Part shown: positions 553 through 62,644 of the stretch, piece after piece
Layout: each line of letters starts with the position of its first letter
Position numbering within the stretch: the first letter of the stretch is position 1
NCBI GenBank assembly: GCA_036785375.1
Contig: JAWMAR010000070.1
Coordinates: 7,192,001-7,256,000, forward strand
Source: Leucoraja ocellata
Taxonomy: Eukaryota
DNA length: 64,000 nucleotides
Direction of reading: 5' to 3'
Made by a program: the position numbers and the translations under genes
Notes under the pieces: generated by a model
Databases searched by the model: none
Told to the model about the DNA's origin: nothing
What the model saw: only the letters and a program-made list of their open reading frames with translations

Positions 553-1092
553 ATGGGACTGCAGAGATGGATAGGATTCATGGTCCTTGTGGAGATGGTG
601 TGGCAAGTCTCCGCAACTGGAACAGGTCCGATCTCCAGAGAATGGGGAGAGGAAGCAAACTTGGCCGGGCGGAACACACGGGCGTATTTCAAAGTCACCA
701 ATGAACCGCTTCCAAGATGCACGAACGAGTCAGATTCTGATGCCATCAGTCATCACCCATCACCGATTAACAAGAAGGTGCTCGTTGCATCTCTGGGTGG
801 TTCTGTTACGTTGCCATGTAATATATCCATCCTTAAAAATCATTACAGGGTTGTTCAATGGAAAAAAGATGGTGTTCAAATTGCCAGTTTCCATGAGAGA
901 GCGTATGCGCGTTATACGGGGTCTGATGTTCACTGGAAGTTCGTTGATCACGACGTCTATATGGCTCAGGACGCCACGTTGCTCCTGACAGGTGTAAAAG
1001 AGGAAGATACAGGGACGTATTCCTGTGTTTGGTTCCATTATAGAGATAGACCGTTTTGTGAATTATTGATGCAGCTGATGATCTCTCACTGA
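553..1092 (+). CDS. Secreted single V-set Ig-domain protein, subfamily A copy 1 (A1), 179 aa
   Basis: ATG 553 in strong Kozak context (GGAACATGG) just after a splice acceptor (TTGTTTCACCCACAG, AG at 547-548); the ORF-track GTG start at 526 lies in the intron. Hydrophobic leader MGLQRWIGFMVLVEMVWQVSA. V-set hallmarks: GGSVTLPC, VQW, DATLLL, EDTGTYSC, about 68 aa between the canonical Cys. Stop right after the G strand, no TM segment. Confidence 0.88.
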   Translation: MGLQRWIGFMVLVEMVWQVSATGTGPISREWGEEANLAGRNTRAYFKVTNEPLPRCTNESDSDAISHHPSPINKKVLVASLGGSVTLPCNISILKNHYRVVQWKKDGVQIASFHERAYARYTGSDVHWKFVDHDVYMAQDATLLLTGVKEEDTGTYSCVWFHYRDRPFCELLMQLMISH

Positions 1093-3340: not shown

Positions 3341-3874
3341 GATTAAATACATTCTTCTCAAGCTTACCCCCAGTCTAGTTCAGTCAAAAACCACTGAGTC
3401 AAGCACTGGAACAATTAATCTTTATTTTTGGACTGTACATCTAATTCAACTACACGATACCTAAACCACTGCGGGTTCGATCCTTGTATCTGCTTGGCCA
3501 AACCCTTCAGCCTCGTGCAAGCAGAAACACTCCAAAAGGTCACGCTGTCCCAAGGATTCTTCCAGAAGATCGACAAAGGACCTCGTGGGGGCTGCCTTTT
3601 ATAAGTCCCCGAACCTTGAGGGGCCGAACTACATAGGGGTGGTCTCTTTACAATCCAATCAAACATATTAATTACATCAGTATATTATAGACAGTTCCCC
3701 AGACCACTAACAGATCCCATACATTGTTTCAGGAGAAGCTTCTGGAAGATACTAACTTAACTTGAATAATGCAACATTTACCCTGGAATTCAAACAAACC
3801 TGCCAGGGCTCAACACTTTAGCCAATCAACAAACAGTAGGATAACTGCCTGGCACATTATATACAATATTTACA
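3341..3874 (-). mobile_element. Solo-LTR-like sequence (paralog 10039-12384, split by CR1)
   Basis: On the - strand it starts TGTAAATATTG, has TATAAAAG and AATAAA in order, and ends TTAATCA in the paralog; no TSD seen. Confidence 0.35.
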
Positions 3875-4169
3875 ATGCTGTTGCAGTAATCCAATCAACC
3901 ATGCATTTACACTTCATTGGAGGTCATCTCCTTGCACGGAAATCGGCATCAAAACATGGGGGTGCACAATTCCATGGCGGCACACATGCACACGTGTGCA
4001 TGCGGCACACACGCGAGAATTCGGCCATGGGCCCTGTGGACGGTAACATCGGGAGCTGACTTGGTTGGTGACCGACTCCGAACTCCAGCAACAGCAGCTT
4101 CGTCCGCCCGGAATCGTGAGGCTTGAATCGGCCCGTTCGCGGGGCCTTTCATCGCCCGACGGGGGTTTC

Positions 4170-4937: not shown

Positions 4938-6254
4938 GGGAGCCTCGATCGCCTCGATGCAGCAGTTTGATTTTAAGCCGCTCGGGCGCTGAAAGGCCCC
5001 GCGAACGGGACGATTCTGCCCATAGAAAGCGTCTGATAAAGTCCGGAACACAAAACATGGGCGGGGGGGGGAATCGTCCCCCACCTCCCAAAGCATAGGG
5101 AGACGTGCCCCCTGTTCCCCCCCCCCCCCAGGATTTCCGCCCATGGCGGTCACGATATCTCCTTCACCGCCGCAGTCTCGACGCCTCTTTGATGGCCGCG
5201 AAAAACCCCATGTGGGGCGTAGAAGGCCGGGTCGGATAAAGCGGAAAGTTAATTTCAATGAGGTCCTCCCCCTGACATCACTGGAAGCTGCTGGTCGACC
5301 ACTCCCCCTTTGTGACATCACTCGAAGCGGGGTGAAGGTTTGCCGTTTAATAAGTTGGTTTTCACTATTTTTAAAACGCTATAACTTGTGAACTACAGCA
5401 TGTAATGTGAAGTGGAGGAGTTTATTTTGTCAAAGGGGTTAATGTGATTAATAATGTGCGGAGGAGGGGAGGAGGAGAGGGGAGAGAAGGAGGAGGGTGT
5501 AGACGAGGGGGAGGGAGTGTAAGAGACTCGCCTGCGCAGTTGTGGGGTATGGGTGAGTGGTGGAATATTACGTTGGGGGGACGGGTACATCGCAAAGGAA
5601 TCTCATTTAGATTTCTTGGGAGGAGGCTTTTCATTGTGGGGGGTGGAATTGCTGAGAGGTTTCATTTACTCCTTATTTATAAAATAATTACGATTGTGGG
5701 GAGGGGTGGGTTGGGGGCGGGGGCTCCCCGTTTCATTGTGGGGGGGTGGAGTAAGAGAGAGGTTTCATTTCCAGAATTTTCCTTGCTAGGGGATGGGGTG
5801 AGTATTGTGGGGTATGGGTGAGTGGTGGAATATTACGTTGGGGGAACGGGACCCAACGGGTCCCACTTGGTCTAGTTATCATTATTTATTTAATGTTTCA
5901 CGTTTACACCAATCTCTCCACCACCACGAACAAGCAGCACAAGACGCAACAAGACAGACACCATTTTATGCAGATGCCGAGAAGTGTGATCAGCTCTGGC
6001 TGAACAACTAATCTTGTGTGTGGATTCGATAAGCAGAAGATTTAATGTCATAGTGTTATACAGTCATAGAGTGATACAGCATGGAAACAGGCCCTTTGGC
6101 CCAACTTGCCCACATTGGACAACATGTCCCAGCTACACTAGTCCCACCTGTCCACGTTTGGTCCATATCCCTCCAAATCTGACCTATCCCTGTTCCTGTC
6201 TAGCAGTTTCTTAAACGTCGGGATAGTTTCTGCCTCAACTGCGATGAGTTGACC

Positions 6255-6586
6255 AGAACGAGACGTGGTGGAGACACAAGCAGGATGTGTGGGGCGCCTG
6301 GTTGGCCGCTGGCAGCTGGGATGACGTTGTTCTTGTTAAACGTTAACGGCTGATGCAACGACACGTTTGGCAGAGGGTGGAGAGGTCGCGGCTGACTCCG
6401 GCCAATGCTCCGTGGGAGGCAGTGATTGGTTGAATGTACGTGAGGGCAGACAATGAGGGGCAGGAGAAGCCGGGAGTCGGTATAAAAGGAGCGAGCGATG
6501 GCAGGAGATGAGAACAAGACCGACCCCGTCACCCTGTGTGGAGACTCCGGAGCTGGTAACCAACCCTGTGGATCCTTCAAGTGTCT
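6255..6586 (+). promoter_or_regulatory. A2 promoter and non-coding exon 1
   Basis: TATAAAAG 6481-6488; CCAAT 6402-6406; reverse ERSE CGTGG-N9-ATTGG 6411-6429; TGATGCAAC 6351-6359; TGACGT 6322-6327; splice donor GTGAGT 6587-6592. Confidence 0.75.
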
Positions 6587-7137
6587 GTGAGTGATGGGGG
6601 TGGGATTGTCTCTGTTCGCTGTTCCCCCAGTTCAGAAGCCTGATAGCAGAGGGGAAGAAGCTGTTCCTGAGTCTGGTGGTGCGCGCTTTCAAGCTTCTGT
6701 ACCTTCTGCTAGAGAGGACCAGGGAGAAGGAGGAATGACCGTGGGTGGGACAAGTGATGGAGTCATAGAGTCACAGCGAGACCTTCGGCCCAACTTGCCC
6801 GCGCCCACCAACGTGTCCCCATCAATACTAGACCCACCTGCCTGCGTTTGGCCCTTACCCCTCTAATCCTGTCCTATCAATGTACCTGTCTAACTGTTTC
6901 TTAATCATTGTGATAGTACCTGCCTCAACTACCTCTTCCGGCAGCTCGTTCCAAACAACCTCCACCCTTTGTGTAAAAAAGTCACCCCTCAGTTTCCCAT
7001 GAAATCTTTCCCCCCCCCCTCGCCTTAAACCGATGTCCTCTGGTTCTCGATTCCCCAACTCTGGGCGGGTTCAGGGAATGTCATCATGAATCCTACTGAG
7101 TTGCAATAAGGTGACCCATTGTTTCACCCACAGGAAC

Positions 7138-7674
7138 ATGGGACTGCAGAGATGGATAGGATTCATGGTCCTTGTGGAGATGGTGTGGCAAGTCTCCGCA
7201 ACTGGAACAGGTCCGATCTCCAGAGAATGGGGAGAGGAAGCAAACTTGGCCGGGCGGAACGCACGGGCTCCTCGACAAGTCACCAATGAAACGCTTCCAA
7301 GATGCACGAACGAGTCAGATTCTGATGCCATCAGTCATCACCTATCAACGATTAACAAGAAGGTGCTCGTTGCATCTCTGGGTGGTTCTGTTACTTTGCC
7401 ATGTAATGTATCCAACGTTGACAATAGTCCCGAGGTTACATGGAATAAAGATGGTGTTGAAATTGCCTATTTCCATAGTAGAGTGCATGAGCGTTATACA
7501 GGATCTGATGTTCACTGGAAGTTCGTGCAACGAAACGTCCTTTGGGAACAGGACGCCACGTTGCTCCTGACAGGTGTAAAAGAGGAAGATAAAGGGACGT
7601 ATTCCTGTGTTTGGATCAAGTATCGTCAGAAACCGGTTTGTGAATTATTGATGCAGCTGATGATCTCTCACTGA
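7138..7674 (+). CDS. Secreted single V-set Ig-domain protein A2, 178 aa
   Basis: Same leader and acceptor as A1; GGSVTLPC...VTW...DATLLL...EDKGTYSC; intact ORF. Confidence 0.88.
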   Translation: MGLQRWIGFMVLVEMVWQVSATGTGPISREWGEEANLAGRNARAPRQVTNETLPRCTNESDSDAISHHLSTINKKVLVASLGGSVTLPCNVSNVDNSPEVTWNKDGVEIAYFHSRVHERYTGSDVHWKFVQRNVLWEQDATLLLTGVKEEDKGTYSCVWIKYRQKPVCELLMQLMISH

Positions 7675-12014: not shown

Positions 12015-14223
12015 TTCAGCCTCGTGCAAGCAGAAACACTCCAAAAGGTCACGCTGTCCCAAGGATTCTTCCAGAAGATCGACAAATGAACCTCGTGGGG
12101 GCTGCCTTTTATAAGTCCCCGAACCTTGAGGGGCCGAACTACATAGGGGTGGTCTCTTTACAATCCAATCAAACATATTAATTACATCAGTATATTATAG
12201 ACAGTTTCCCAGACCACTAACAGATCCCGTACATTGTTTCAGGAGAAGCTTCTGGAAGATGCTAACTTAACTTGAATAATGCAACATTTACCCTGGAATT
12301 CAAACAAACCCGCCAGGGCTCAACACTTTAGCCAATCAACAAACAGTAGGATAACTGCCTGGCACATTATATACAATATTTACAATGCTGTTACAGTAAT
12401 CCAATCAACCATGCATTTACACTTCATTGGAGGTCATCTCCTTGCACGGAAATCGGCATCAAAACATGGGGGGCCACAATTCCATGGCAGCACACATGCA
12501 CACGCATGCATGCGGCACACACGCGAGGATTCGGCCATGGGCCCTGTGGACAGTAACATCGGGAGCTGACTTGGTTGGTGACCGATTCCGAACTCCAGCA
12601 ACAGCAGCTTCGTCCGCCCCGAACCGTGGGGCTTGAATCGGCCCGTTCGCGGGGCCTTTCATCGCCCGGCAGGGGTTTCAACATTGGCATTGATGTGGAT
12701 AGAGAACTGGCTGGTCTCTTAATCTGAGGAAAGACATTATTGCCATAGAGAGAGTACAGAGAAAGTTCACCAGACTGATTCCTGGGATGTCAGGACTTTA
12801 TGGCATACTGAGTTGGATGATCAGTATAATCATATTAAATGGCAGTGCAGGCTCGAAGGGCCGAATGGCCTACTCCTGCACCTATTTTCTATGTTTCTAT
12901 GGGAGCCTCGATCGCCTCGATCGCCTCGATGCAGCAGTTTGATTATAAGCCGCTTGGGCGCTGAAAGGCCCCGCGAACGGGACGATTCTGCCCATTGAAA
13001 GCGTCTGATAAAGTCCGGAACACAAAACATGGGCGGGGGGGGGGGAAATCGTCCCCCACCTCCCAAAGCATAGGGAGACGTGCCCCATGTCCCCCCCCAG
13101 GATTTCCGCCCATGGCGGTCACGATATCTCCTTCACCGCCGCAGTCTCGACGCCTCTTTGATGGCCGCGAAAAACCCCATGTGGGGCGTAGAAGGCCGGG
13201 TCGGATAAAGCGGAAAGTTAATTTCAATGAGGTCCTCCCCCTGACATCACTGGAAGCTGCTGGTCGACCACTCCCCCTTTGTGACATCACTCGAAGGGGG
13301 GTGAAGGTTTGCCGTTTAATAAGTTGGTTTTCACTATTTTTAAAACGCTATAACTTGTGAACTACAGCATGTAATGTGAAGTGGAGCAGTTTATTTTGTC
13401 AAAGGGGTTAATGTGATTAATAATGTGCGGAGGAGGGGAGGAGGAGAGGGGAGAGAAGGAGGAGGGTAAAGACGAGGGGGAGGGAGTGTAAGAGACTCGC
13501 CTGCGCAGTTGTGGGGTATGGGTGAGTGGTGGAATATTACGTTGGGGGGACGGGTACATCGCAAAGGAATCTCATTTAGATTTCTTGGGAGGAGGCTTTT
13601 CATTGTGGGGGGTGGAATTGCTGAGAGGTTTCATTTACTCCTTATTTATAAAATAATTACGATTGTGGGGAGGGGTGGGTTGGGGGCGGGGGCTCCCCGT
13701 TTCATTGTGGGGGGGTGGAGTAAGAGAGAGGTTTCATTTCCAGAATTTTCCTTGCTAGGGGATGGGGTGAGTATTGTGGGGTATGGGTGAGTGGTGGAAT
13801 ATTACGTTGGGGGAACGGGGCCCAACGGGTCCCACTTGGTCTAGTTATCATTATTTATTTAATGTTTCACGTTTACACCAATCTCTCCACCACCACGAAC
13901 AAGCAGCACAAGACGCAACAAGACAGACACCATTTTATGCAGATGCCGAGAAGTGTGATCAGCTCTGGCTGAACAACTAATCTTGTGTGTGGATTCGATA
14001 AGCAGAAGATTTAATGTCATAGTGTTATACAGTCATAGAGTGATACAGCATGGAAACAGGCCCTTTGGCCCAACTTGCCCACATTGGACAACATGTCCCA
14101 GCTACACTAGTCCCACCTGTCCACGTTTGGTCCATATCCCTCCAAATCTGACCTATCCCTGTTCCTGTCTAGCAGTTTCTTAAACGTCGGGATAGTTTCT
14201 GCCTCAACTGCGATGAGTTGACC

Positions 14224-14555
14224 AGAACGAGACGTGGTGGAGACACAAGCAGGATGTGTGGGGCGCCTGGTTGGCCGCTGGCAGCTGGGATGACGTTGTT
14301 CTTGTTAAACGTTAACGGCTGATGCAACGACACGTTTGGCAGAGGGTGGAGAGGTCGCGGCTGACTCCGGCCAATGCTCCGTGGGAGGCAGTGATTGGTT
14401 GAATGTACGTGAGGGCAGACAATGAGGGGCAGGAGAAGCCGGGAGTCGGTATAAAAGGAGCGAGCGATGGCAGGAGATGAGAACAAGACCGACCCCGTCA
14501 CCCTGTGTGGAGACTCCGGAGCTGGTAACCAACCCTGTGGATCCTTCAAGTGTCT
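14224..14555 (+). promoter_or_regulatory. A3 promoter and non-coding exon 1
   Basis: TATA 14450-14457, ERSE 14380-14398, donor GTGAGT at 14556; essentially identical to the A2 promoter. Confidence 0.72.
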
Positions 14556-15102: not shown

Positions 15103-15652
15103 ATGGGACTGCAGAGATGGATAGGATTCATGGTCCTTGTGGAGATGGTGTGGCAAGTCTCCGCAACTGGAACAGGTCCGATCTCCAGAGAATGGGGAGA
15201 GGAACCAAACTTGGCCGGGCGGAACGCACGGGCCCCTCAGCAAGTCAACAATGAACCGCTTCCAAGATGCACGAATGACTTAGATTCTGACAGTGATCAC
15301 GGTGCATCGAATAGCGATATTAGGCTCATTGCATCTCCGGGTGATTCTTTGACGCTGCCCTGTAAAATATCCAAAGATTACAAACAACTCTGGTTAGTTC
15401 AGTGGAGACAAAACGATGTTGAAATTAACAATTATAATGAGAAAACGTTTGATGAATATACGGGATCTGATGTCCGCTGGATATTTGTGGATCTAGAAGT
15501 CCTTTGGGACTGGGACGGCTCGTTGCTCCTGAGGCATAAAAGAGAAAGATGAAGGGATATATTCCTGTGTTTCGTTCATTGATACTCATGTGTTATGTGA
15601 AGAATTGGCCCAGCTGACAATCCTCCCAGTGATTCAGCAGTGCCCGACCTAG
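15103..15652 (+). pseudogene. Frameshifted A-type Ig V-domain gene (A3)
   Basis: Same leader; PGDSLTLPC...VQW...DGSLLL, then a 2-nt deletion after 15532 (CTG A-- GGC versus CTG ACA GGT in A1). The shifted frame continues GIKEKDEGIYSCVSFIDTHVLCEELAQLTI. An extra base near 15622 also moves the paralogous TGA (15630-15632) out of frame. Confidence 0.75.
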
Positions 15653-16759: not shown

Positions 16760-19700
16760 GGTAGTGAGTAGACTACACCTATTATGCGCGTTATATTATC
16801 AAGAGCTTGCCTCCGCTAGTTTGTACGAGTAGCTACTAGGAAATGTAATGTCCTGCAGATCTATGCTGTAAGTAGATTTAATAAACATGTGTTGTATCTT
16901 GATATGTGTCCGACTCAGCTCATTACATGATGTCCACTATGTCATGTTTTTTTTAATTAGTTTTTGTGTCTACTATATCCATCATGACACATTTTTGTCG
17001 CCTTCCTAGTCCTGTGATCTTTGACTCTGACATTGCTGAACTCGGGCGTCTTTTCGAGCATGACTACACTCATTATGCTGGCATTGTTCATCGCAACGAC
17101 CCCCCCAATGTGCGTGCTTTTGTGTTGCTCAACTTAGCGGGACCTGAAGCTATGAATCGCGCTGGCAATTTCACATTTGAGCCTGCTGTTCTGGATGCTA
17201 ATGGTCAGGTCCTGGCGCCTGCTGAGACGAATGACGACCCTGCTGTCTTTCTTGCAAAGTTCAGATGGTTGTGTGACCTGCACTCAAACTATATTATTGA
17301 ACGGAGGTACACAAAAATGCTGGAGAAACTCAGCGGGTGCAGCAGCATCTATGGAGCGAAGGAAATAGGCGACGTTGCCTATTTCTATAAGGGTTTCGGG
17401 ATGAAACGTTGCCTATTTCCTTCGCTCCATAGATGCTGCTGCACCCGCTGAGTTTCTCCAGCATTTTTGTCTACCTTTGTTCCATTTGATCTTCCGTTTG
17501 TGCACGTCGAGTTGATTGCATTAGTTGAAACAGGGCGGACCTCGTGAAATCTTCCACCCCTGACATATGACGAAGGAATGGATCGACTGTGCTTGTATTC
17601 ACTGGAATTTAGGATGAGACTGGAACTTATAAAAACATATAAAATTCTTAAGGGATCGGACAGACTAGATAGATGCAGGAAAAATATTGGGGGAGTCCAG
17701 AACCAGTGGTCACACAGTTTAAGAATAAGGTCTCGGCCATTTAGGACTGAGATGAAAAAAAACCTTTTCACCCAGAGAGTTGTGAATCTGTGGAATTCTC
17801 TGCCACAGAAGGCAGTGGAGGCCAATTCACTGGATGTTCTCAAGAGAGAGTTAGATTAAGCTCTTAGTGCTAACGTAATCAAGGGATATGGGGAGAAAGC
17901 AGGAACGGGGTAATGATTTAGGATGTTCAGCCATGATCATATTGAATGGCGGTGCTGGCTCGAGGGGCCGAATGGCCTCCTCCTGCACCAATTTTCTATG
18001 TTTCTGCACAATCCCAACAAGGGTCAAAACTGGACTCTAATCAGCTGCTGCAACTGTGCAAGAGGCCAATGTAAGGGAGGCTCAGTGATACAGCTGTAGA
18101 GTTGCTGCCGTACAGCGCTAGTGACCCGGGTTCAATGCTGACTGTAGGTACTGTCTGTACGGTGGTTGTACTTTTTCCCTATGACCGTGAGGGTTTCGCC
18201 CAGGTGCTACAGTTTCCTCACAGATGTCAAAGACGTGCAGGTTTGTAGGTTAATTGGCTTCAGTAAATTGTCCCTTGTGTGTAGGTTAGAACTAGTGTAC
18301 GGGCGATCACTCAAGTTCAAGTGTTTAAGAGAGATTATTGTCATGTGTCCCTGATAGGACAATGAAATTCTTGCTTTGCTTCAGCACAACAGAACATAGT
18401 AGGCATTTACTACAGAACAGATCAGAGTTTCTCCAGCATTTTTGTGTACCTTTGATCTTCCAGCATCTGCAGTTCCTTCTTGAGCATATTATTGAACGGA
18501 CCAAGTTTTATGCTCGTATGCAACAGGTTGGTGAACCAAAGGTTTTATCAGTGACTTAAAACAAATGGCTGCACGCTGCTGATTTCAAGATCTCTGCGAT
18601 GAACTCATCCATGACAAACTTGTCGGAGGAATGCTTGATAGCAAGTTACGGGGTGAACTTCTTTGTAATACTGACCTAACCCTTAATCAAGCAGAGCATG
18701 CCTGTTGGATGCTGAGATAACATCTTCCCACACTGAGTCTGTGTCCTCTGGTCACTGTTCGCAGCATAGTGTTAATCTTGCAGACTACTCCTCTTGTAAC
18801 ACCCACACAAGGTCTGTTCGATGTCAAAATTGCAACTATTTTCTTGCTAGGTGTCAGCAGTTCTGCGTTGCTTATGGTAAAGCCTGTAATTTCTGCAAGA
18901 AGTTAAACCACTTTTCTCGATGCTGCCGTTCCCGTGTGACTCAAGCAGCGTCAAGGATGAGCCTGCACCTGCTGCAACATGAGCTTGTTGATAATGACTT
19001 CCAAGAGCTTGATTTGCCATCCCCCGCTCCACTCTCAGAAAGTACAGATACCAGTTCTGCAACCCATTCTCCCCTCCCTTCGTCTAACAAGCAACTTGAC
19101 CCTGAGGTAACCATGTTTGTGATTAACAGGCCTTTAATCGCTAAGGTTGATACTGGCACAAAATGCAATGTCATCTCGTTAACAGAGTTTTAAAAATTCG
19201 TTATGCTGCATGTATTGAAAAGGCCTCGGCCACGCTTTGGACTTACGGGGGAGATGTTCTACACCCTCTTGGACAAGCTGATTTAAAGTGCACCATAGAC
19301 AAGCAGACTCATACTTTAAAGGTTTATATTGTTAAGGGGGATTCAGAGACTTTGCTCAGTATCAACGCAATCCACGATCTAGGCCTGGTATAGTTTGGCT
19401 ACGCCGTCCATCAAGACTTTCTCGCTGATGGACACACTCAACAGGTACTCTCTCAATACAAAGATCTGTTTAACGCCAAGCTTAGCAAATTGCCTATCAA
19501 ATACCACATTGTTGTCGATCCCAACATAACTCCTGTGGTCCGAGAACCGCATCATGCTCTGCACGCCATGCGTGGCAGAGTAAACAATGAACTCAAGCGG
19601 ATGGTCTCCATGGGTGTTATTGCCGAGGTTACAGACCCATCTGACTGGGTTTCCACAATGGTGGTCGCAACAAAGAAAAACAAAGAGGAGATCCATATCT

Positions 19701-21112: not shown

Positions 21113-21628
21113 TCACTTCACTGTCAGCTTGATATTTAGTCTACATTCCTTTTGGCCAGTGAACCAAGAGCAGGAATATATCCCAATATCAGTCTTGAGT
21201 AAACCTATGATGACCAACGAGGCATCCCGTGTCCCATCCACGTTTGTATTCATGAACCTCCAGCGGCCGACCCCCCCTGGATAAGTCGCTCCTTTCCCTT
21301 TAGTAAACACGCCCAGTATCCCGCTCCCTTTACTCCAGGTGATCATAAAATCCGCGGGTCCAGTCTTCCCTGTGGGTACTTTACAGGGCAGCGTAGCAGA
21401 ACCACCCTTGCGTGCCGTCACATCCGTGAATTTCATCTTGGTCGCAGCTGGCTTAGCACCGCATTCTGGAGAACTTTGTTTTTTGACTTGTCGAGGCTCC
21501 CGTGCGTTCCACCCGGGCAAGTTTGCTTCCTCTCCCCATTCTCTGGAGATCGGACCTGTTCCAGTTGCGGAGACTTGCCACACCATCTCCACAAGGACCA
21601 TGAATCCTATCCATCTCTGCAGTCCCAT
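21113..21628 (-). CDS. Secreted single V-set Ig-domain protein, subfamily B copy 1 (B1), 171 aa
   Basis: Same leader as the A genes; GGSATLPC, ITW, GRWRF, RDASLVI, DIGIYSC, ends KLTVK-stop; no TM segment. Confidence 0.88.
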   Translation of the reverse strand: MGLQRWIGFMVLVEMVWQVSATGTGPISREWGEEANLPGWNAREPRQVKKQSSPECGAKPAATKMKFTDVTARKGGSATLPCKVPTGKTGPADFMITWSKGSGILGVFTKGKGATYPGGVGRWRFMNTNVDGTRDASLVIIGLLKTDIGIYSCSWFTGQKECRLNIKLTVK

Positions 21629-21632
21629 GTTC

Positions 21633-22218
21633 CTGTGGGTGAAACAATGGGTCACCTTATTGCAACTCAGTAGGATTCATGATGACATTCCCTGAAGCTG
21701 CTGCCACCACACTGGGCAATATCGCTGTGCAGCTTCTACAGCTCCCGCCTGGTTTAGTTTAAGTTGCTTTGACCTGTCGTGGACCAACAACATTGAAGTG
21801 GCAGCCAAGGAGGCACACCAATGCATCGACTTCCTCAGAGACAGAGGAAATACGACAAGTCTCCAATGTCTCTTAGAAACTTCTACAGATGCACCACAGA
21901 GAGCAGACTGTGGGGTTGCATCACAGCTTGGTTTGGGAACAGCTCTGAGCCCAAGACCACAAGATATTGCAGAGTTGTGGATGGAGCCCAGTCCATCACA
22001 CAGACCACACTCCCCACCAGTGACTCCATCTACAACCAAAAAAATCAAAGTCTTGTCCCACCCCGGGCATTCCTCCTTCTCCCTGGTCCTGTCTAGCAGA
22101 CGGTACAGAAGCTTGAAAGCGCGCACCACCAGACTCAGGAACAGCTTCTTCCCCTCTGCTATCAGGCTTCTGAACTGGGGGAACAGTGAACAGAGACAAT
22201 CCCACCCCCATCACTCAC
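21633..22218 (-). other. Predicted 5'UTR intron of B1, alternative type (also B3, 52036-52621)
   Basis: Same donor and acceptor ends as the other copies, but the middle (about 21696-22050) is a longer Rex1-like remnant instead of the CR1-type fragment. Confidence 0.65.
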
Positions 22219-22593
22219 AGACACTTGAAGGATCCACAGGGTTGGTTACCAGCTCCGGAGTCTCCACACAGGGTGACGGGGTCGGTCTTGTTCTCATCTC
22301 CTGCCATCGCTCGCTCCTTTTATACCGACTCCCGGCTTCTCCTGCCCCTCATTGTCTGCCCTCACGTACATTCAACCAATCACTGCCTCCCACGGAGCAT
22401 TGGCCGGAGTCAGCCGCGACCTCTCCACTCTCTGCCAAACGTGTCGTTGCATCAGCCGTTAACGTTTAACAAGAACAACGTCATCCCAGCTGCCAGCGGC
22501 CAACCAGGCGCCCCACACATCCTGCTTGTGTCTCCACCACGTCTCGCTTTGGCCACCCATCGGACCAGATGTCCCAGCCACGCCACGTCACCA
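22219..22593 (-). promoter_or_regulatory. B1 promoter and non-coding exon 1
   Basis: TATA 22317-22324; ERSE CCAAT-N9-CCACG 22376-22394; UPRE-type TGACGTGG (CCACGTCA on + strand) 22583-22590. Confidence 0.75.
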
Positions 22594-29070: not shown

Positions 29071-31597
29071 GGACCACAATATGGTCGAATTCCATATTCA
29101 AATAGAAGGGGAGCAGGTTGAAACTCAGGCTAGGGTGCTTAGTCTAAATAAGGGGGATTATGAAGGTATGAGGACTTAGCTGATCAAAGTTGACTGGGAT
29201 AGCAGACTCAAGAATAAGACGGTACATGAGCAGTGGTGTACGTTTAAGGGTATACTGTATAATCTTCAAGAAAAATTTATTCCTATGAAGAAAAAAAGGG
29301 GTAAGGGTAAGAACAGTCAGCCATGGCTCAGTAAAACTATAAAGGATAGTATTCGGCTGAAAGCAAGGGCATATAAGGTAGCCAGAGATAGTGGGAGGGT
29401 AGAGGATTGGGAAGCATTTAAAGGTCAGCAAAAAATAACTAAGAGATTAATTAAGACGGGGAAAATAGATTATGAAAGGAATTTAGCGAACAACATAAAA
29501 ACTAATAGTAAGAGTTTTTATAGCTATATAAAAAGAAAAAGGGTGGCTAAGGTGAACGTTGGTCCATTGGAGGGTGAGACTGGAGAGTTGTTGGTGGGGA
29601 ACATGGAAATGGCAAAGGCATTAAACGAGTATTTTGTATCAGTCTTCACCATAGAAGACACAAAAAATATTCCAACGCTGGATAAACAGGGGGCGGTAGG
29701 AATGGAGGAGCTAAATACTATTAAGATCACCAAGGAGGTGGTATTAGGGAAATTAATGAGACTGAAGGAGGATAAATCCCCTGGGCCTGATGGATTACAT
29801 CCAAGGGTCTTGAGGGAGATAGCGGTGGGGATTGTGGATGCATTGGTGATAATTTTCCAAAACTCCCTGGAGGCAGGAACGGTCCCAGTGGATTGGAAAA
29901 TGGCCAATGTAACACCTATATTTAAAAAAGGAAGTAAACAGAAGGCGGGTAACTATAGACCGGTTAGTCTAACATCGGTGGTGGGTAAAATGTTAGAGAC
30001 AATTATTAAAGAAACACTAACGGGGCACTTGGATAAACATGACTTCATCGGACAGAACCAGCATGGTTTTGTGAAGGGGAAGTCCTGTTTAACGAATCTG
30101 CTCGAATTCTTTGAGGAAGTAACAACCCGGGTGGATAAAGGGGAACCGGTGGATGTGGTATACTTGGACTTCCAAAAGGCTTTTGACAAGGTGCCACATA
30201 AGAGACTATTGCTAAAAATAAAAAATTATGGGATTGGGGGTAATATATTAGCATGGGTAGAGGATTGGCTAACAAATAGGAAGCAGAGAGTGGGGATAAA
30301 TGGTTCATACTCGGGATGGCAACCGGTAACTAGCGGGGTTCCGCAGGGGTCGGTGCTGGGACCCCAGTTGTTCACAATTTATATAAATGATTTGGAGGAG
30401 GGAACCAAGTGTAATATATCAAAATTTGCGGACGATACAAAAATGGGAGGAAAAGTAGGGGATGAGGAGGATAGGAAGAGTCTGCAAAAGGATATAGATA
30501 AGCTAGGTGAGTGGGCAACAACTTGGCAGATGAAATTTAATACTAATAAATGTGAAGTCATTCACTTTGGGAAAAAAAATGATAGGGCAAGTTATTTTCT
30601 AAATGAGGAGGAGCTGCGTTGTAATGCAACGCAAAGGGATCTAGGGGTATTAGTACATGAATCACTGAAAGTTAGTATGCAGGTGCAGCAAGCAATCAGG
30701 AAGGCCAATGGAGTTTTGGCCTTTATTGCTAGGGGGATTGAGTATAAAAACACGGAGGTCTTGCTGCAGCTGTACACAGTATTAGTGAGACCACATTTGG
30801 AATACTGTGTACAGTTCTGGGGTCCATACTTAAGAAAGGATGTACTAGCCCTGGAGGCAGTGCAGCGAAGGTTTACAAGATTAATTCCTGCAATGAGGGG
30901 ATTGACATATGAGGAAAGGTTAAGTAGGCTGGAACTCTACTCTTTGGAGTTTAGAAGAATGAGAGGCGATCTCATTGAAACATATAAGATCGTGAGGGGC
31001 CTTGATCGGGTGGATGCACCGAGGATGTTCCCAATGATCGGGGAAACTAGAACTAGGGGACATAGTTGCAGAATAAGAGGGGGCTCTTTTAAAACTGAGA
31101 TGAGGAAGAACTTCTTCACCCAGAGGGTGGTTAATTTATGGAATTCACTGCCCCAGGGAGCAGTGGAAGCAGAAACTTTAAATATATTTAAGACAAAAAT
31201 AGATGTTTTTTTAGCTGCCAAGGGGATAAGGGGCTACGGGGAGAGGGCAGGGATATGGACCTAGGTATGGTTAGTATAGTAAGACCTGAGTGATCTCCTG
31301 GACAAGTGTCGATCGCCTGGATTGGGGTCAGAGAGGAATTTCCCGGATTTTTTTCCCGAATTGGACCTGGGTTTTTATCCGTTTTTTTGCCTCCCCCAGG
31401 AGATCACGAGGTTCTTGGGGTGGAGAGGGGTGATAGCGGTATAAGGGGGAGGGTAGTGTCTTGTGTTCTGTGTCTTGTGTCTACTGTTTGTGGGTAAGTG
31501 TGTCTGTTTAGTGTTCAGCCATGAGCGAATGGCGGTGCGGGCTCGACGGACCTGGTGGTCTACTCTCGCACCTACTTTCTATGTTTCTATGTTTCTA
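29071..31597 (+). mobile_element. Young 5'-truncated CR1 LINE nested in the ERV
   Basis: ORF2 homology begins at DHNMVEFHI; ends in (TTTCTATG)n. Confidence 0.92.
29285..31264 (+). CDS. CR1 ORF2 remnant, reverse transcriptase domain, 659 aa open frame, endonuclease missing
   Basis: [43 protein letters not shown]; in-frame stop upstream at 29177-29179. Confidence 0.8.
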   Translation: MKKKRGKGKNSQPWLSKTIKDSIRLKARAYKVARDSGRVEDWEAFKGQQKITKRLIKTGKIDYERNLANNIKTNSKSFYSYIKRKRVAKVNVGPLEGETGELLVGNMEMAKALNEYFVSVFTIEDTKNIPTLDKQGAVGMEELNTIKITKEVVLGKLMRLKEDKSPGPDGLHPRVLREIAVGIVDALVIIFQNSLEAGTVPVDWKMANVTPIFKKGSKQKAGNYRPVSLTSVVGKMLETIIKETLTGHLDKHDFIGQNQHGFVKGKSCLTNLLEFFEEVTTRVDKGEPVDVVYLDFQKAFDKVPHKRLLLKIKNYGIGGNILAWVEDWLTNRKQRVGINGSYSGWQPVTSGVPQGSVLGPQLFTIYINDLEEGTKCNISKFADDTKMGGKVGDEEDRKSLQKDIDKLGEWATTWQMKFNTNKCEVIHFGKKNDRASYFLNEEELRCNATQRDLGVLVHESLKVSMQVQQAIRKANGVLAFIARGIEYKNTEVLLQLYTVLVRPHLEYCVQFWGPYLRKDVLALEAVQRRFTRLIPAMRGLTYEERLSRLELYSLEFRRMRGDLIETYKIVRGLDRVDAPRMFPMIGETRTRGHSCRIRGGSFKTEMRKNFFTQRVVNLWNSLPQGAVEAETLNIFKTKIDVFLAAKGIRGYGERAGIWT

Positions 31598-37925: not shown

Positions 37926-38438
37926 TCACATCACTGTCAGCTTGGTATTTAGTCTACATTCCTCTTTGCCAGTGAACCAAGCGCAGGAATACATCCCAAC
38001 ATCACTCTTCTGTAAACCCGTGATGACCAACGAGGCATCCCGTGTCCCATCCACGTTTGTTTCCTTGAACGACCAGCGGCCGGCCCCCCCTGGATAGGTC
38101 GCACCTTTCCCTTTAGTAAACACGGCCAATGTCCCCTTCCCTTTACTCCAGGTGACAGCAAAGTTGCTGGGTCCATCCTTCCCTGTGGGTACTATACAGG
38201 GTAGCGTAGCAGAACCACCCTTTGCCGTCACATCCGTGAATTTCATCTTGTTCGCAGCTGGCCTAGCACCGCATTCTGGAGTATCTTGTTTGTTGACTTG
38301 TCGAGGCTCCCGTGCGTTCCACCCGGGCAAGTTTGCTTCCTCTCCCCATTCTCTGGAGATCGGATCTGTTCCAGTTGCGGAGACTTGCCACACCATCTCC
38401 ACAAGGACCATGAATCCTATCCATCTCTGCAGTCCCAT
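37926..38438 (-). CDS. Secreted single V-set Ig-domain protein B2, 170 aa
   Basis: Intact paralog of B1 (GGSATLPC...VTW...DASLVI...DVGMYSC...KLTVM). Confidence 0.88.
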   Translation of the reverse strand: MGLQRWIGFMVLVEMVWQVSATGTDPISREWGEEANLPGWNAREPRQVNKQDTPECGARPAANKMKFTDVTAKGGSATLPCIVPTGKDGPSNFAVTWSKGKGTLAVFTKGKGATYPGGAGRWSFKETNVDGTRDASLVITGLQKSDVGMYSCAWFTGKEECRLNTKLTVM

Positions 38439-38988: not shown

Positions 38989-39365
38989 AGACACTTGAAG
39001 GATCCACAGGGTTGGTTACCAGCTCCGGAGTCTCCACACAGGGTGACGGGGTCGGTCTTGTTCTCATCTCCTGCCATCGCTCGCTCCTTTTATACCGACT
39101 CCCGGCTTCTCCTGCCCCTCATTGTCTGCCCTCATGTACATTCAACCAATCACTGCCTCCCACGGAGCATTGGCCGGAGTCAGCCGCGACCTCTCCACCC
39201 ACTGCCAAACGTGTCGTTGCATCAGCCGTTAACGTTTAACAAGAACAACGTCATCCCAGCTGCCAGCGGCCAACCAGGCGCCCCACACATCCTGCTTGTG
39301 TCTCCACCACGTCTCGCTTTGGCCACCCATCGGACCAGATGTCCCAGCCACGCCACGTCACCACC
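38989..39365 (-). promoter_or_regulatory. B2 promoter and non-coding exon 1
   Basis: TATA 39087-39094, ERSE 39146-39164, TGACGTGG 39353-39360. Confidence 0.75.
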
Positions 39366-41170: not shown

Positions 41171-41502
41171 AGAACGAGACGTGGTGGAGACACAAGCAGG
41201 ATGTGTGGGGCGCCTGGTTGGCCGCTGGCAGCTGGGATGACGTTGTTCTTGTTAAACGTTAACGGCTGATGCAACGACACGTTTGGCAGAGGGTGGAGAG
41301 GTCGCGGCTGACTCCGGCCAATGCTCCGTGGGAGGCAGTGATTGGTTGAATGTACGTGAGGGCAGACAATGAGGGGCAGGAGAAGCCGGGAGTCGGTATA
41401 AAAGGAGCGAGCGATGGCAGGAGATGAGAACAAGACCGACCCCGTCACCCTGTGTGGAGACTCCGGAGCTGGTAACCAACCCTGTGGATCCTTCAAGTGT
41501 CT
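41171..41502 (+). promoter_or_regulatory. A4 promoter and non-coding exon 1
   Basis: TATA 41397-41404, ERSE 41327-41345, donor at 41503; divergent from the B2 promoter. Confidence 0.75.
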
Positions 41503-42051: not shown

Positions 42052-42591
42052 ATGGGACTGCAGAGATGGATAGGATTCATGGTCCTTGTGGAGATGGTGT
42101 GGCAAGTCTCCGCAACTGGAACAGGTCCGATCTCCAGAGAATGGGGAGAGGAAGCAAACTTGGCCGGGCGGAACACACGGGCGTATTTCAAAGTCACCAA
42201 TGAACCGCTTCCAAGATGCACGAACGAGTCAGATTCTGATGCCATCAGTCATCACCCATCACCGATTAACAAGAAGGTGCTCGTTGCATCTCTGGGTGGT
42301 TCTGTTACGTTGCCATGTAATATATCCATCCTTAAAAATCATTACAGGGTTGTTCAATGGAAAAAAGATGGTGTTCAAATTGCCAGTTTCCATGAGAGAG
42401 CGTATGCGCGTTATACGGGGTCTGATGTTCACTGGAAGTTCGTTGATCACGACGTCTATATGGCTCAGGACGCCACGTTGCTCCTGACAGGTGTAAAAGA
42501 GGAAGATACAGGGACGTATTCCTGTGTTTGGTCCGTGTATAGAGATAGACCGTTTTGTGAATTATTGATGCAGCTGGTGATCTCTCACTGA
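42052..42591 (+). CDS. Secreted single V-set Ig-domain protein A4, 179 aa
   Basis: Near-identical to A1; differs at FH>SV in the FG region and M>V near the C-terminus. Confidence 0.88.
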   Translation: MGLQRWIGFMVLVEMVWQVSATGTGPISREWGEEANLAGRNTRAYFKVTNEPLPRCTNESDSDAISHHPSPINKKVLVASLGGSVTLPCNISILKNHYRVVQWKKDGVQIASFHERAYARYTGSDVHWKFVDHDVYMAQDATLLLTGVKEEDTGTYSCVWSVYRDRPFCELLMQLVISH

Positions 42592-46579: not shown

Positions 46580-49500
46580 TGTAGTGAGTAGACTACACCT
46601 ATTATGCGCGTTATATTATCAAGAGCTTGCCTCCGCTAGTTTGTACTAGGAAATGTAATGTCCTGCAGATCTATGCTGTAAGTAGATTTAATAAACATGT
46701 GTTGTATCTTGATATGTGTCTGACTCAGCTCATTACATGATGTCCACCATGTCATGTTTTTTTAATTAGGTTATGTGTCTACTATATCCATCATGACACA
46801 TTTTTGTCGCCTTCCTAGTCCTGTGATCTTTGACTCTGACACTGCTGAACTCTGACGTCTTTTCGAGCATGACTACACTCATTATGCTGGCATTGTTCAT
46901 CTCAACGACCCCCCCCCCCAATGTGCGTGCTTTTGTGTTGCTCAACTTAGCGGGACCTGAAGCTATGAATCGCGCTGGCAATTTCACATTTGAGCCTGCT
47001 GTTCTGGATGCTAATGGTCAGGTCCTGGCGCCTGCTGAGACGAATGACGACCCTGCTGTCTTTCTTGCAAAGTTCAGATGGTTGTGTGACCTGCACTCAA
47101 ACTATATTATTGAACGGAGGTACACAAAAATGCTGGAGAAACTCAGCGGGTGCAGCAGCATCTATGGAGCGAAGGAAATAGAAACATAGAAACATAGAAA
47201 CATAGAAACATAGAAATTAGGTGCAGGAGTAGAGGCCATTCGGCCCTTCGAGCCTGCACCGCCATTCAATATGATCATGGCTGATCATCCAACTCAGTAT
47301 CCCATACCTGCCTTCTCTCCATACCCCCTGATCCCCTTAGCCACAAGGGCCACATCTAACTCCCTCTTAAATATAGCCAATGAACTGGCCTCAACTACCC
47401 TCTGTGGCAGAGAGTTCCAGAGATTCACCACTCTCTGCGTGAAAAAAGTTCTTCTCATCTCGGTTTTAAAGGATTTCCCCTTTATCCTTAAGCTGTGACC
47501 CCTTGTCCTGGACTTCCCTAACATCGGGAACAATCTTCCTGCATCTAGCCTGTCCAACCCCTTAAGAATTTTGTAAGTTTCTATAAGATCCCCTCTCAAT
47601 CTTCTAAATTCTAGAGAGTATAAACCAAGTCTATCCAGTCTTTCTTCATAAGACAGTCCTGACATCCCAGGAATCAGTCTGGTGAACCGTCTCTGCACTC
47701 CCTCTATGGCAATAATGTCCTTCCAGGCCAAAACCCTTCTTCAGACAGGTTTCGGCCAGAAACGTTGCCTATTTCTAGAAAGGTTTCGTTCCGAAACATT
47801 GCCTATTTCCTTCGCTACATAGATGCTGCTGCACCCGCTGAGTTTCTCCAGCATTTTTGTCTACCTTTGTTCCATTTGATCTTCCGTTTGTGCACGTCGA
47901 ATTGATTGCATTAGTCGAAACAGGGCGGACCTCGTGAAGGTTGCAATCTTCCACCCCTGACATATGACGAAGGAATGGATCGAATGTGCTTGTATTCACT
48001 GGAATTTAGGATGAGACTGGAACTTATAAAAACATATAAAATTCTTAAGGGATCGGACAGACTAGATAGATGCAGGAAAAATGTTCCCGATGTTGGGGGA
48101 GTCCAGAACCAGTGGTCACACAGTTTAAGAATAAGGTGTCGGCCATTTAGGACTGAGATGAAAAAAACCTTTTCACCCAGAGAGTTGTGAATCTGTGGAA
48201 TTCTCTGCCACAGAAGGCAGTGGAGGCCAATTCACTGGATGTTCTCAAGAGAGAGTTAGATTAAGCTCTTAGTGCTAACGGAATCAAGGGATATGGGGAG
48301 AAAGCAGGAACGGGGTAATGATTTAGGATGTTCAGCCATGATCATATTGAATGGCGGTGCTGGATCGAGGGGCCGAATGGCCTCCTCCTGCACCAATTTT
48401 CTATGTTTGTGCACAATCCCAACAAGGGTCAAAACTGGACTCTAATCAGCTGTTGCAACTGTGCAAGAGGCCAATGTAAGGGAGGCTCAGTGATACAGCA
48501 GTAGACTTGCTGCCGTACAGCGCTAGTGACCCGGGTTCAATGCTGACTGTAGGTACTGTCTGTACGGTGGTTGTACTTTTTCCCTATGACCGTGACGGTT
48601 TCGCCCAGGTGCTACAGTTTCCTCACAGATGTCAAAGACGTGCAGGTTTGTAGGTTAATTGGCTTCAGTAAATTGTCCCTTGTGTGTAGGTTAGAACTAG
48701 TGTACGGGCGATCACTCAAGTTCAAGATTCAAGAGAGTTTATTGGCATGTGTCCCTGATAGGACAATGAAATTCTTGCTTTGCTTCAGCACAACAGAATA
48801 TAGTAGGCATTTACTACAGAACAGATCAGAGTTTCTCCAGCATTTTTGTGTTCCTTTGATCTTCCAGCATCTGCAGTTCCTTCTTGAGCATATTATTGAA
48901 CGGACCAAGTTTTATGCTCGTATGCAACAGGTTGGTGAACCAAAGGTTTTATCAGTGACTTAAAACAAATGGCTGCACGCTGCTAATTTCGAGATCTGTG
49001 CGATGAACTCATCCATGACAAAGTTGTCGGAGGAATGCTTGATAGCAAGTTACGGGGTGAACTTCTTTGTAATACTGACCTAACCCTTAATCAAGCAGAG
49101 CATGCCTGTTGGATGCTGAGATAACATCTTCCCACACTGAGTCTGTGTCCTCTGGTCACTGTTCGCAGCATAGTGTTAATCTTGCAGACTACTCCTCTTG
49201 TAACACCCACACAAGGTCTGTTCGATGTCAAAATTGCAACTATTTTCTTGCTAGGTGTCAGCAGTTCTGCATTGCTTATGGTAAAGCCTGTAATTTCTGC
49301 AAGAAGTTAAACCACTTTTCTCGATGCTGCCGTTCCCGTGTGACTCAAGCAGCGTCAAGGATGAGCCTGCACCTGCTGCAACATGAGCTTGTTGATAATG
49401 ACTTCCAAGACCTTGATTTGCCATCCCCCGCTCCACTCTCAGAAAGTACAGATACCAGTTCTGCAATCCATTCTCCCCTCCCTTCGTCTAACAAGCAACT

Positions 49501-61720: not shown

Positions 61721-62644
61721 ATGTCGGCGTCCCTGCGAGTCTCTACCAAGAAACAGTACTTGACCTACATCAGGAAATGGGAGCAGTACTGCTTGGATGC
61801 AGGGACATCATACAAGACAGCCTCGATCACGGACGTACTGGAATTCCTGGCCCACTTGCACCATGACCAAAAGATGAGCTACAGTGCCATCAATGCAGCA
61901 CGGAGCGCCCTGTCCGCTTACCTTATGCCTACAGGACATCACAGCATTGGATCCCACCCTCTGGTTATAAAACTCCTCAAAGGGATTTATAATACTAAAC
62001 CCCCTACACCCAGATACACCCATGTATGGGATGTAAGTGTAGTTTTGTCACACCTTAGAGGTTGGCCTCCGGTGGGATCCTTGAGTCTGGAGCAGTCCAC
62101 TCTCAAGACCCTCATGCTCATGGCGCTCGTCTCTGCACAAAGGGTTCAGTCGCTGCATCAACTAAGACTGGACAACATGGTAACCACCCCAGATTCCATT
62201 ACATCTACCATGCCGGGGTTGGTAAAACAAAGCAGGCCAGGTATGCCCAACTCTCCGTTAATCTTCCGGGCCTATCCTCCAGAACCTAGGCTGTGTGTAG
62301 TGACCCATCTATACAACTACGTAGACACAACCCAAACGCTTAGAGGGAGTGAAAAAGCCTTATGGGTCAGCCACAAAAAGCCTTTTGGACGGGTTACCAG
62401 CCAGACAATATCTAGGTGGTTGAAACAGGTCTTAAAAGCCGCGGGGATTAACACGGATGTTTTAAAATCCCATTCTACCAGGGCAGCGTCCACGTCAGCG
62501 GCGGAACGGATGCAGGTTCCCATAGACCACATCCTTAGTACAGCGGGATGGTCAAGGGAATCAACGTTCCGGAAATTCTACCACAAACCGCTGATGGAGA
62601 AGGACTTGTTTGCGGACAAAATTTTAGAATCTGCAAACTTATAA
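61721..62644 (+). CDS. DIRS tyrosine recombinase
   Basis: Catalytic R (SAQR), HSTR, GW and Y (FRKFY); first ATG 61721 in CACCACCATG context. Confidence 0.88.
   Translation: MSASLRVSTKKQYLTYIRKWEQYCLDAGTSYKTASITDVLEFLAHLHHDQKMSYSAINAARSALSAYLMPTGHHSIGSHPLVIKLLKGIYNTKPPTPRYTHVWDVSVVLSHLRGWPPVGSLSLEQSTLKTLMLMALVSAQRVQSLHQLRLDNMVTTPDSITSTMPGLVKQSRPGMPNSPLIFRAYPPEPRLCVVTHLYNYVDTTQTLRGSEKALWVSHKKPFGRVTSQTISRWLKQVLKAAGINTDVLKSHSTRAASTSAAERMQVPIDHILSTAGWSRESTFRKFYHKPLMEKDLFADKILESANL

Follow-up and report, generated by a model that had tools for sequence, protein, structure and literature searches.

The question raised by this locus is why a family of secreted Ig proteins in a skate should carry, immediately upstream of its TATA boxes, elements of the kind that serve the UPR, and whether those elements are likely to be used. 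The window, a 64-kb stretch of Leucoraja ocellata DNA, contains eight related reading frames of 149-179 codons, and the paralogues, at least eight in number, lie in tandem and inverted arrangement (Table 1). Each frame begins with a near-invariant leader and stops directly past the Ig domain. The gene layout consists of a short exon 1, one intron and one coding exon, and the exon junction of A1 agrees with NCBI models of Leucoraja erinacea. A V-set Ig domain was found in each of the four frames scanned against Pfam, and structure modelling predicts a confident V fold. The A2 frame (window 15103-15640) ends ahead of the second Ig cysteine owing to a 2-bp deletion, with its promoter still perfect; A2 is probably a pseudogene. 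With no match in an Rfam scan, a reading of the locus as non-coding RNA was ruled out.

Table 1. Coordinates of the features in the window; offsets are relative to the TATA box.
Feature	Position	Strand	Remark
LTR-like element	3506-3960, 12015-12470	-	TATA at 3603 and 12113
SINE-like repeat	6040..6241	.	takes the place of the A-gene distal promoter from -239 outward; UPRE lost thereby
5' cassette (promoter, exon 1, intron, leader)	6242..7245	+	pairwise divergence 0.3-1.8%, 7 copies
GACGTGG, partial UPRE	6262..6268	+	-219; present in 7/7 copies
E-box CAGCTG	6313..6318	+	possible bHLH site by motif match
TGACGT (CRE/XBP1-type half site)	6322..6327	+	-159; one of 5-6 ACGT cores
ATF4 site CTGATGCAAC	6350..6359	+	exact match to published motif (A/C)TGA(T/C)GCAA(T/C)
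Second CCAAT box	6402..6406	+	-79
ERSE-I of A1	6411..6429	-	CCAAT-CACTGCCTC-CCACG; CCAAT flanks NF-Y-type (AACCAATCA)
ERSE, all copies	6411-6429, 14380-14398, 22376-22394, 39146-39164, 41327-41345, 52779-52797, 57310-57328
TATA box of A1	6481..6488	+	TATAAAAG
Exon 1 of A1	6511..6586	+	presumed start ~30 nt past TATA, which would make it non-coding; donor GT at 6587
Intron of A1	6587..7133	+	SINE-like insert ~6755-7069, conserved like the promoter
Gene A0	CDS 553..1092	+	promoter outside window
Gene A1	CDS 7138..7674	+	single exon; signal peptide (by eye), pro/linker region, single V-set Ig domain, no membrane anchor
Gene A2	ORF 15103-15552; ERSE to TATA 14380..14457	+
Gene A3	CDS 42052-42591; ERSE to TATA 41327..41404	+
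Gene B1	CDS 21113-21628; promoter 22317..22590	-	UPRE 22583-22590, ERSE 22376-22394, TATA
Gene B2	CDS 37926-38438; promoter 39087..39360	-	UPRE 39353-39360, ERSE 39146-39164, TATA
Gene B3	CDS 51516-52031; promoter 52720..52993	-	UPRE 52986-52993, ERSE 52779-52797, ATF4 site (one mismatch), TATA
Gene B4	CDS 56088-56603; promoter 57251..57525	-	UPRE 57518-57525 (context GGTGACGTGGCG), ERSE 57310-57328, TATA

Protein searches recovered eight full-length relatives and none outside the batoids: Leucoraja supplied six, all uncharacterised, and Rhinoraja and the electric ray Narcine one each. The species range given here is that of these eight proteins. B4 is 97.7% identical to one of the Leucoraja proteins. 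Among the best 150 profile matches only two span leader and domain in a short single-domain protein, and the Atlas returned generic V-set clusters only. A literature search on the gene identifiers found no paper naming these genes and no expression data, although paywalled papers or unseen supplements could hold some. The genes make up an uncharacterised batoid family of secreted proteins, each with a single V-set Ig domain that evolves fast. Ig-region dN/dS is 1.4-2.7 in all six B pairs, nominally significant in one of them, and close to 2 when A1 is compared with either A0 or A3; over these eight pairs nominal significance is reached in two, A2 being excluded for its frameshift. These values are suggestive, but not proof, of diversifying selection on the Ig region. 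Two extra cysteines (56 and 168 in A1) are kept in 14 of 14 aligned family members and are likely to form a second disulfide, linking the linker to the last strand.

By sequence and by fold, the Ig domain comes closest to PVR (E 4.8e-13) and nectin-1 D1 (E 1.2e-9), and the Narcine relative is auto-named nectin-1-like. Identity to the V domains of nectins, PVR (CD155) and CD226 is only 20-28%, however, and many V domains are comparable, so that the resemblance appears generic and not one of orthology. Nectins have a V-C2-C2 ectodomain and a membrane anchor; membership of that family was rejected, since here a single V domain is followed by a stop, with neither C2 domains nor a membrane anchor. 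An Ig V gene segment was likewise rejected: leader and domain share one exon, the domain is complete with its stop, the promoter has no octamer, and no recombination signal was found at any gene end.

An exact ERSE (CCAAT-N9-CCACG), always CCAATCACTGCCTCCCACG, is present in each of the seven visible promoters, and the window contains no other. It lies at -70 to -52 from the first T of TATAAAAG, as the preliminary description had it when it placed an exact ERSE about 50-70 bp upstream of the TATA box in all visible promoters. In every copy it is antisense to the gene. When spacings of 0-30 were scanned, N9 was the sole CCAAT/CCACG spacing in the promoters; ERSE-II (ATTGG-N-CCACG) has no match in the window. 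There are 17 TATAAAA(G/A) sites in the window, 11 with a CCAAT box nearby and seven with an ERSE. The flanks of the ERSE CCAAT conform to the NF-Y consensus. By its sequence, then, the element is a textbook ERSE-I. Major chaperone promoters contain several ERSEs each; here there is one.

The LTR-like element found twice in the window also has a TATA promoter layout. It carries three inverted CCAAT boxes, TGATGTAAT and TATAAAAG, and in the first copy an AATAAA follows 177 bp downstream; an inverted CCAAT stands at -56, as in the gene promoter, without ERSE, CCACG or ACGT. The second copy appears to be split by a CR1 LINE.

A second CCAAT box and TGACGT, also claimed for every promoter, were each found in 7 of 7. 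The remaining elements divide the genes. Four UPR motif definitions were taken from the available part of PMC10700025; under these, B1, B2 and B4 have ERSE-I, UPRE and an exact ATF4 site, the A genes ERSE-I and ATF4, and B3 ERSE-I and UPRE. The ten-base ATF4 motif is present in six of the seven promoters and absent from the rest of the window. B3 reads TGATGCAAG where the other six have TGATGCAAC, and the earlier statement that TGATGCAAC is in all seven holds for six and fails for B3. The full UPRE, TGACGTGG, had been assigned to the B genes only, and it was indeed found near -266 in 4/4 B and 0/3 A promoters; of six UPRE matches across the window, four are in promoters. The B-type UPRE agrees with the first 10 of the 15 bases of the selected ATF6 site TGACGTGGCGATTCC, which serves as an ATF6 reporter in zebrafish, where, in the text available of PMC6994954, XBP1s gave no activation. 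One B copy lacks one ACGT core, and in B1 an insertion lies just upstream of the UPRE. A simple consensus search of -300 to +60 found no octamer, NF-kB, ISRE or heat-shock pattern. In the MHC S-X-Y module the RFX X box is about 20 bp upstream of the inverted CCAAT; an S-X-Y promoter was rejected, as the distance from that CCAAT up to the nearest GCAAC half-site is 70 bp.

How much weight the sevenfold recurrence can bear depends on how the copies came to be alike. The uniform cassette runs from -239 through the end of the leader, whereas the A and B Ig exons diverge by 43-48%. Between A3 and B4, substitutions occupy 2 of 688 cassette positions as against 178 of 386 in the Ig exon, and the switch, near 7250-7265, is sharp. 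When A is compared with B, synonymous divergence rises from 0 in the leader to 0.57-0.87 beyond it, so that fast protein evolution is insufficient as the sole explanation. Variable columns number 6/234 in the promoter, 7/166 in the 5' intron, none in exon 1 and 9/305 in the intron SINE, the SINE count excluding B1 and B3 because of their different insert. Of six informative sites, two cut across the A/B split; two others place B4 together with the A genes. The uniformity of the cassette is the product of gene conversion or exon exchange. Since the intron SINE is conserved to the same degree as the promoter, the identity of the promoters points to gene conversion and not to selection on the motifs.

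It follows that the identity of the ERSE among copies is uninformative on selection: with 18 of 689 cassette columns variable, the chance of an invariant 19-bp stretch is 60%, and an argument for ERSE selection from inter-copy identity has no power. Seven independent ERSEs are rejected in favour of a single homogenised cassette. Collapse of the assembly is an unlikely source of the identity because Leucoraja erinacea paralogues show the same uniform 5' pattern (in six of them, 71-74 of 74 residues are identical over exon 1 and leader); moreover, the copies in the window differ by 2-12 substitutions and by their intron inserts. This homogenisation is possibly a more striking feature of the locus than the motifs, and a literature search found no paper on concerted evolution of a promoter together with a leader. 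In B1 (21697-22051) and B3 (52100-52453), the intron site that holds the SINE in the other six genes is occupied by a different repeat insert; it contains a TGATGCAAC that falls short of the ten-base ATF4 definition.

The promoter is therefore treated as effectively one observation, and one picked post hoc from a genome scan. A test in which 0 of 100 shuffles reached seven ERSE matches is invalid as a measure of significance, all seven promoters having been copied from a single sequence. With the promoter counted once, an ERSE arises in 46 of 30,000 dinucleotide shuffles of B4 and in 36 of 30,000 of A1, or about 1 in 700-1,200. TGACGT (4,652/30,000 A1 shuffles) and a pair of CCAAT boxes (2,169/30,000) are unremarkable alone, and TGACGTGG/A alone arises in 1,916/30,000 shuffles (~6%). 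B4 contains three of the four published motif types, a number reached by none of 120,000 shuffles, of which 50 reached two; A1 contains two of the four, as do 26 of 120,000 shuffles. Letter-permuted motif sets yielded two types in 0/40,000 cases for B4 and 2/40,000 for A1. ACGT cores number six in 290 bp against 1.2 expected (7/30,000 shuffles), with five or six across the promoters; none of 205 tiles elsewhere has at least four, and one of 45 CpG-rich tiles has four. Even as a single case, then, the promoter holds more UPR-type bZIP and NF-Y sites than chance would give. The earlier claim that the family is wired to a secretory programme accordingly stands in part: it keeps the UPR/NF-Y enrichment and the secreted nature of the cargo, but recurrence in seven genes adds no evidence, because the whole 5' cassette, intronic SINE included, is equally homogenised.

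We give an about even chance to the proposal that NF-Y and ER-type bZIP factors drive these genes in a professional secretory cell from a uniform ancestral promoter. A single ancestral TATA promoter would have been copied and kept uniform by gene conversion. NF-Y would occupy the inverted CCAAT at -56, with ATF6 or XBP1s on the CCACG nine bases off; the UPRE and ACGT cores would be bound by XBP1s, ATF6 or a CREB3-like factor, and TGATGCAAC by ATF4 with a C/EBP partner. Cargo output would so follow the UPR that operates physiologically in a professional secretory cell, be it of a gland, of the mucosa or a granulocyte, with a uniform expression-and-export cassette ahead of a variable binding domain. 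Use of the sites by ER-type bZIP factors in one setting or another is probable; developmental use is an evenly balanced matter and acute use unlikely. ATF6 binding to CCACG requires NF-Y on CCAAT, and XBP1s binds ERSE and UPRE independently (PMC8301375, in part); CREB3-family factors can use the same elements as ATF6 and XBP1s (PMC3844873, in part), and ATF6 is reported to function in fish secretory tissue (PMC3639050). Against the proposal, the A genes lack the UPRE, lost to a SINE, yet three of their four frames are intact. The LTR-like element has the same CCAAT-TATA spacing, TATAAAAG and TGATGTAAT, which makes the layout partly generic. Nothing favours plasma cells, one of the cell types suggested at first, and -300 to +60 has no octamer; shark Ig promoters, too, are often octamer-less.

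That such motifs mark chaperone genes and "not cargo", as the preliminary description put it, is too strong, CRP, SAP, Col1a1 and AVP being secreted targets of ER bZIP factors. CRP and SAP are regulated by CREBH with ATF6, and Col1a1 and AVP by CREB3L1 (available text of PMC6616197); in Drosophila CrebA mutants cargo is reduced (available text of PMC12262295). This precedent lends some credit to a second reading, in which ER stress or infection induces the genes acutely, as it does CRP and SAP, and they are not constitutive products of a secretory cell type; exact sites for all three UPR arms do lie inside 270 bp. Ig-region dN/dS above 1 in all six B pairs would suggest host-pathogen conflict, but just one of these pairs is nominally significant. 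The NF-kB, ISRE and heat-shock patterns are absent from -300 to +60, and bulk cargo made during ER stress would presumably be an extra folding load. Acute induction is unlikely on balance. A more specific form of it is rather improbable: a batoid repertoire of soluble, diversifying V-set decoys or binders with a nectin/CD155-like fold, its cassette continually homogenised and hard-wired to all three UPR arms, from which ER stress (for instance in infection) would release the whole variable set simultaneously.

Alternatively, this may be a strong promoter of an ordinary kind, built on NF-Y and TATA and receiving CRE- or C/EBP-type inputs; the spacing of CCACG would then be a coincidence multiplied by duplication. 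The elements have a single origin, the unrelated LTR-like element shares the CCAAT-TATA geometry, and the promoter is CpG-rich (observed/expected 0.83-0.93 against 0.51). Exact ERSE-I matches are rare: the human genome has 535, most away from known UPR genes, and of the 39 human genes with one no more than 10 kb upstream, most of those listed are non-chaperone (PMC5890977, in the part available). Shuffles that preserve CpG nevertheless give an ERSE in only ~0.1% of cases and three motif types in 0 of 120,000, and we regard coincidence as an improbable account.

Donation of the promoter by a transposable element (LTR or MITE), or its copying from an ER chaperone gene, would be compatible with function and is decidedly doubtful. 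The coding sequence is intronless, the locus is rich in repeats, and a 22-bp inverted repeat (91%) with TGACGT in one arm flanks the B UPRE region. On the other hand, the promoter core has no copies outside the gene units in this window, AATAAA is absent within 260 bp past the TATA box, unlike in the LTR-like element, the inverted repeat has no target-site duplication (by eye), and Rfam gave no match. An LTR promoter as such was rejected, for want of AATAAA within 260 bp and of dispersed copies in the window.

Very unlikely is a reading in which the TATA box is unused and transcription starts upstream, the protein being 32 residues longer from the ATG at 6498 and the motifs placed differently relative to the true start: all six retrieved Leucoraja erinacea models begin at that ATG, ten bases past the TATA box, which would require an upstream start, and the 32-codon frame is open, but the Rhinoraja model begins at the signal-peptide Met, the Narcine extension is mostly unrelated, and the Kozak context of the Met at 7138 is strong. 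Automated annotation tends to choose the furthest in-frame ATG. The upstream ATGs at 6498 and 6508 both precede the presumed TATA-directed start; a start about 30 nt after the TATA box would exclude them and make the signal-peptide Met the first AUG.

The ERSE-I promoters of chaperone genes (Hspa5, Hsp90b1, Calr; also Ddit3 and Xbp1) share with the skate genes an exact and, in the skate, presumably proximal CCAAT-N9-CCACG, as defined in the available part of PMC8301375. The skate ERSE, in contrast, is single in each promoter, sits on lineage-specific secreted cargo and exists in seven copies through homogenisation. CREB3/ATF6 cargo genes (CRP, SAP and hepcidin under CREBH, Col1a1 and AVP under CREB3L1, and a subset under Drosophila CrebA) likewise use ER-bZIP-type, TGACGTGG-like sites; in the source texts available, CRE-like or UPRE-type sites are described for them, whereas the skate promoters combine ERSE-I, ATF4 and UPRE in a multigene family. 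Eosinophil RNases, defensins and toxin families resemble the skate family in their non-coding exon 1, single coding exon, invariant leader, fast-evolving mature part and birth and death of copies; they differ in that the skate family has an Ig fold and its homogenisation reaches promoter and intron. The new element is that a canonical ERSE, ATF4 and UPRE set is carried by a homogenised cassette, and that the secreted Ig family it serves evolves fast and is undescribed; bZIP-regulated cargo as such was already known.

If the sites work, a diversifying secreted family would be plugged into the UPR through the canonical ERSE, which is otherwise associated for the most part with chaperones. The genes would then offer a cheap test of how cartilaginous fish co-regulate cargo and secretory capacity, and a way into a batoid Ig family that is so far uncharacterised. 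The loss of the UPRE to a SINE in A but not in B amounts to a natural deletion. If the sites fail, the locus would present one chance motif amplified by duplication.

Several repeats in the window deserve mention. The arms of the 22-bp inverted repeat (57410-57431 and 57578-57599, 91% complementary, 146 bp apart) bracket the UPRE of B4; the repeat is also present in B2 and B3 and is split by the insertion in B1. It could be a MITE remnant or chance. A near-intact DIRS-type retrotransposon, with a gag-like frame, reverse transcriptase, methyltransferase-like region and tyrosine recombinase, occupies 58511-62644, and a 659-codon open frame at 29285-31264 corresponds to the reverse transcriptase region of a CR1-type LINE, the family being judged from the translation. 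A duplicated open frame of 155 and 106 codons (16984-17451 and 46869-47189), the longer copy of which has no Pfam match, is probably transposon-derived.
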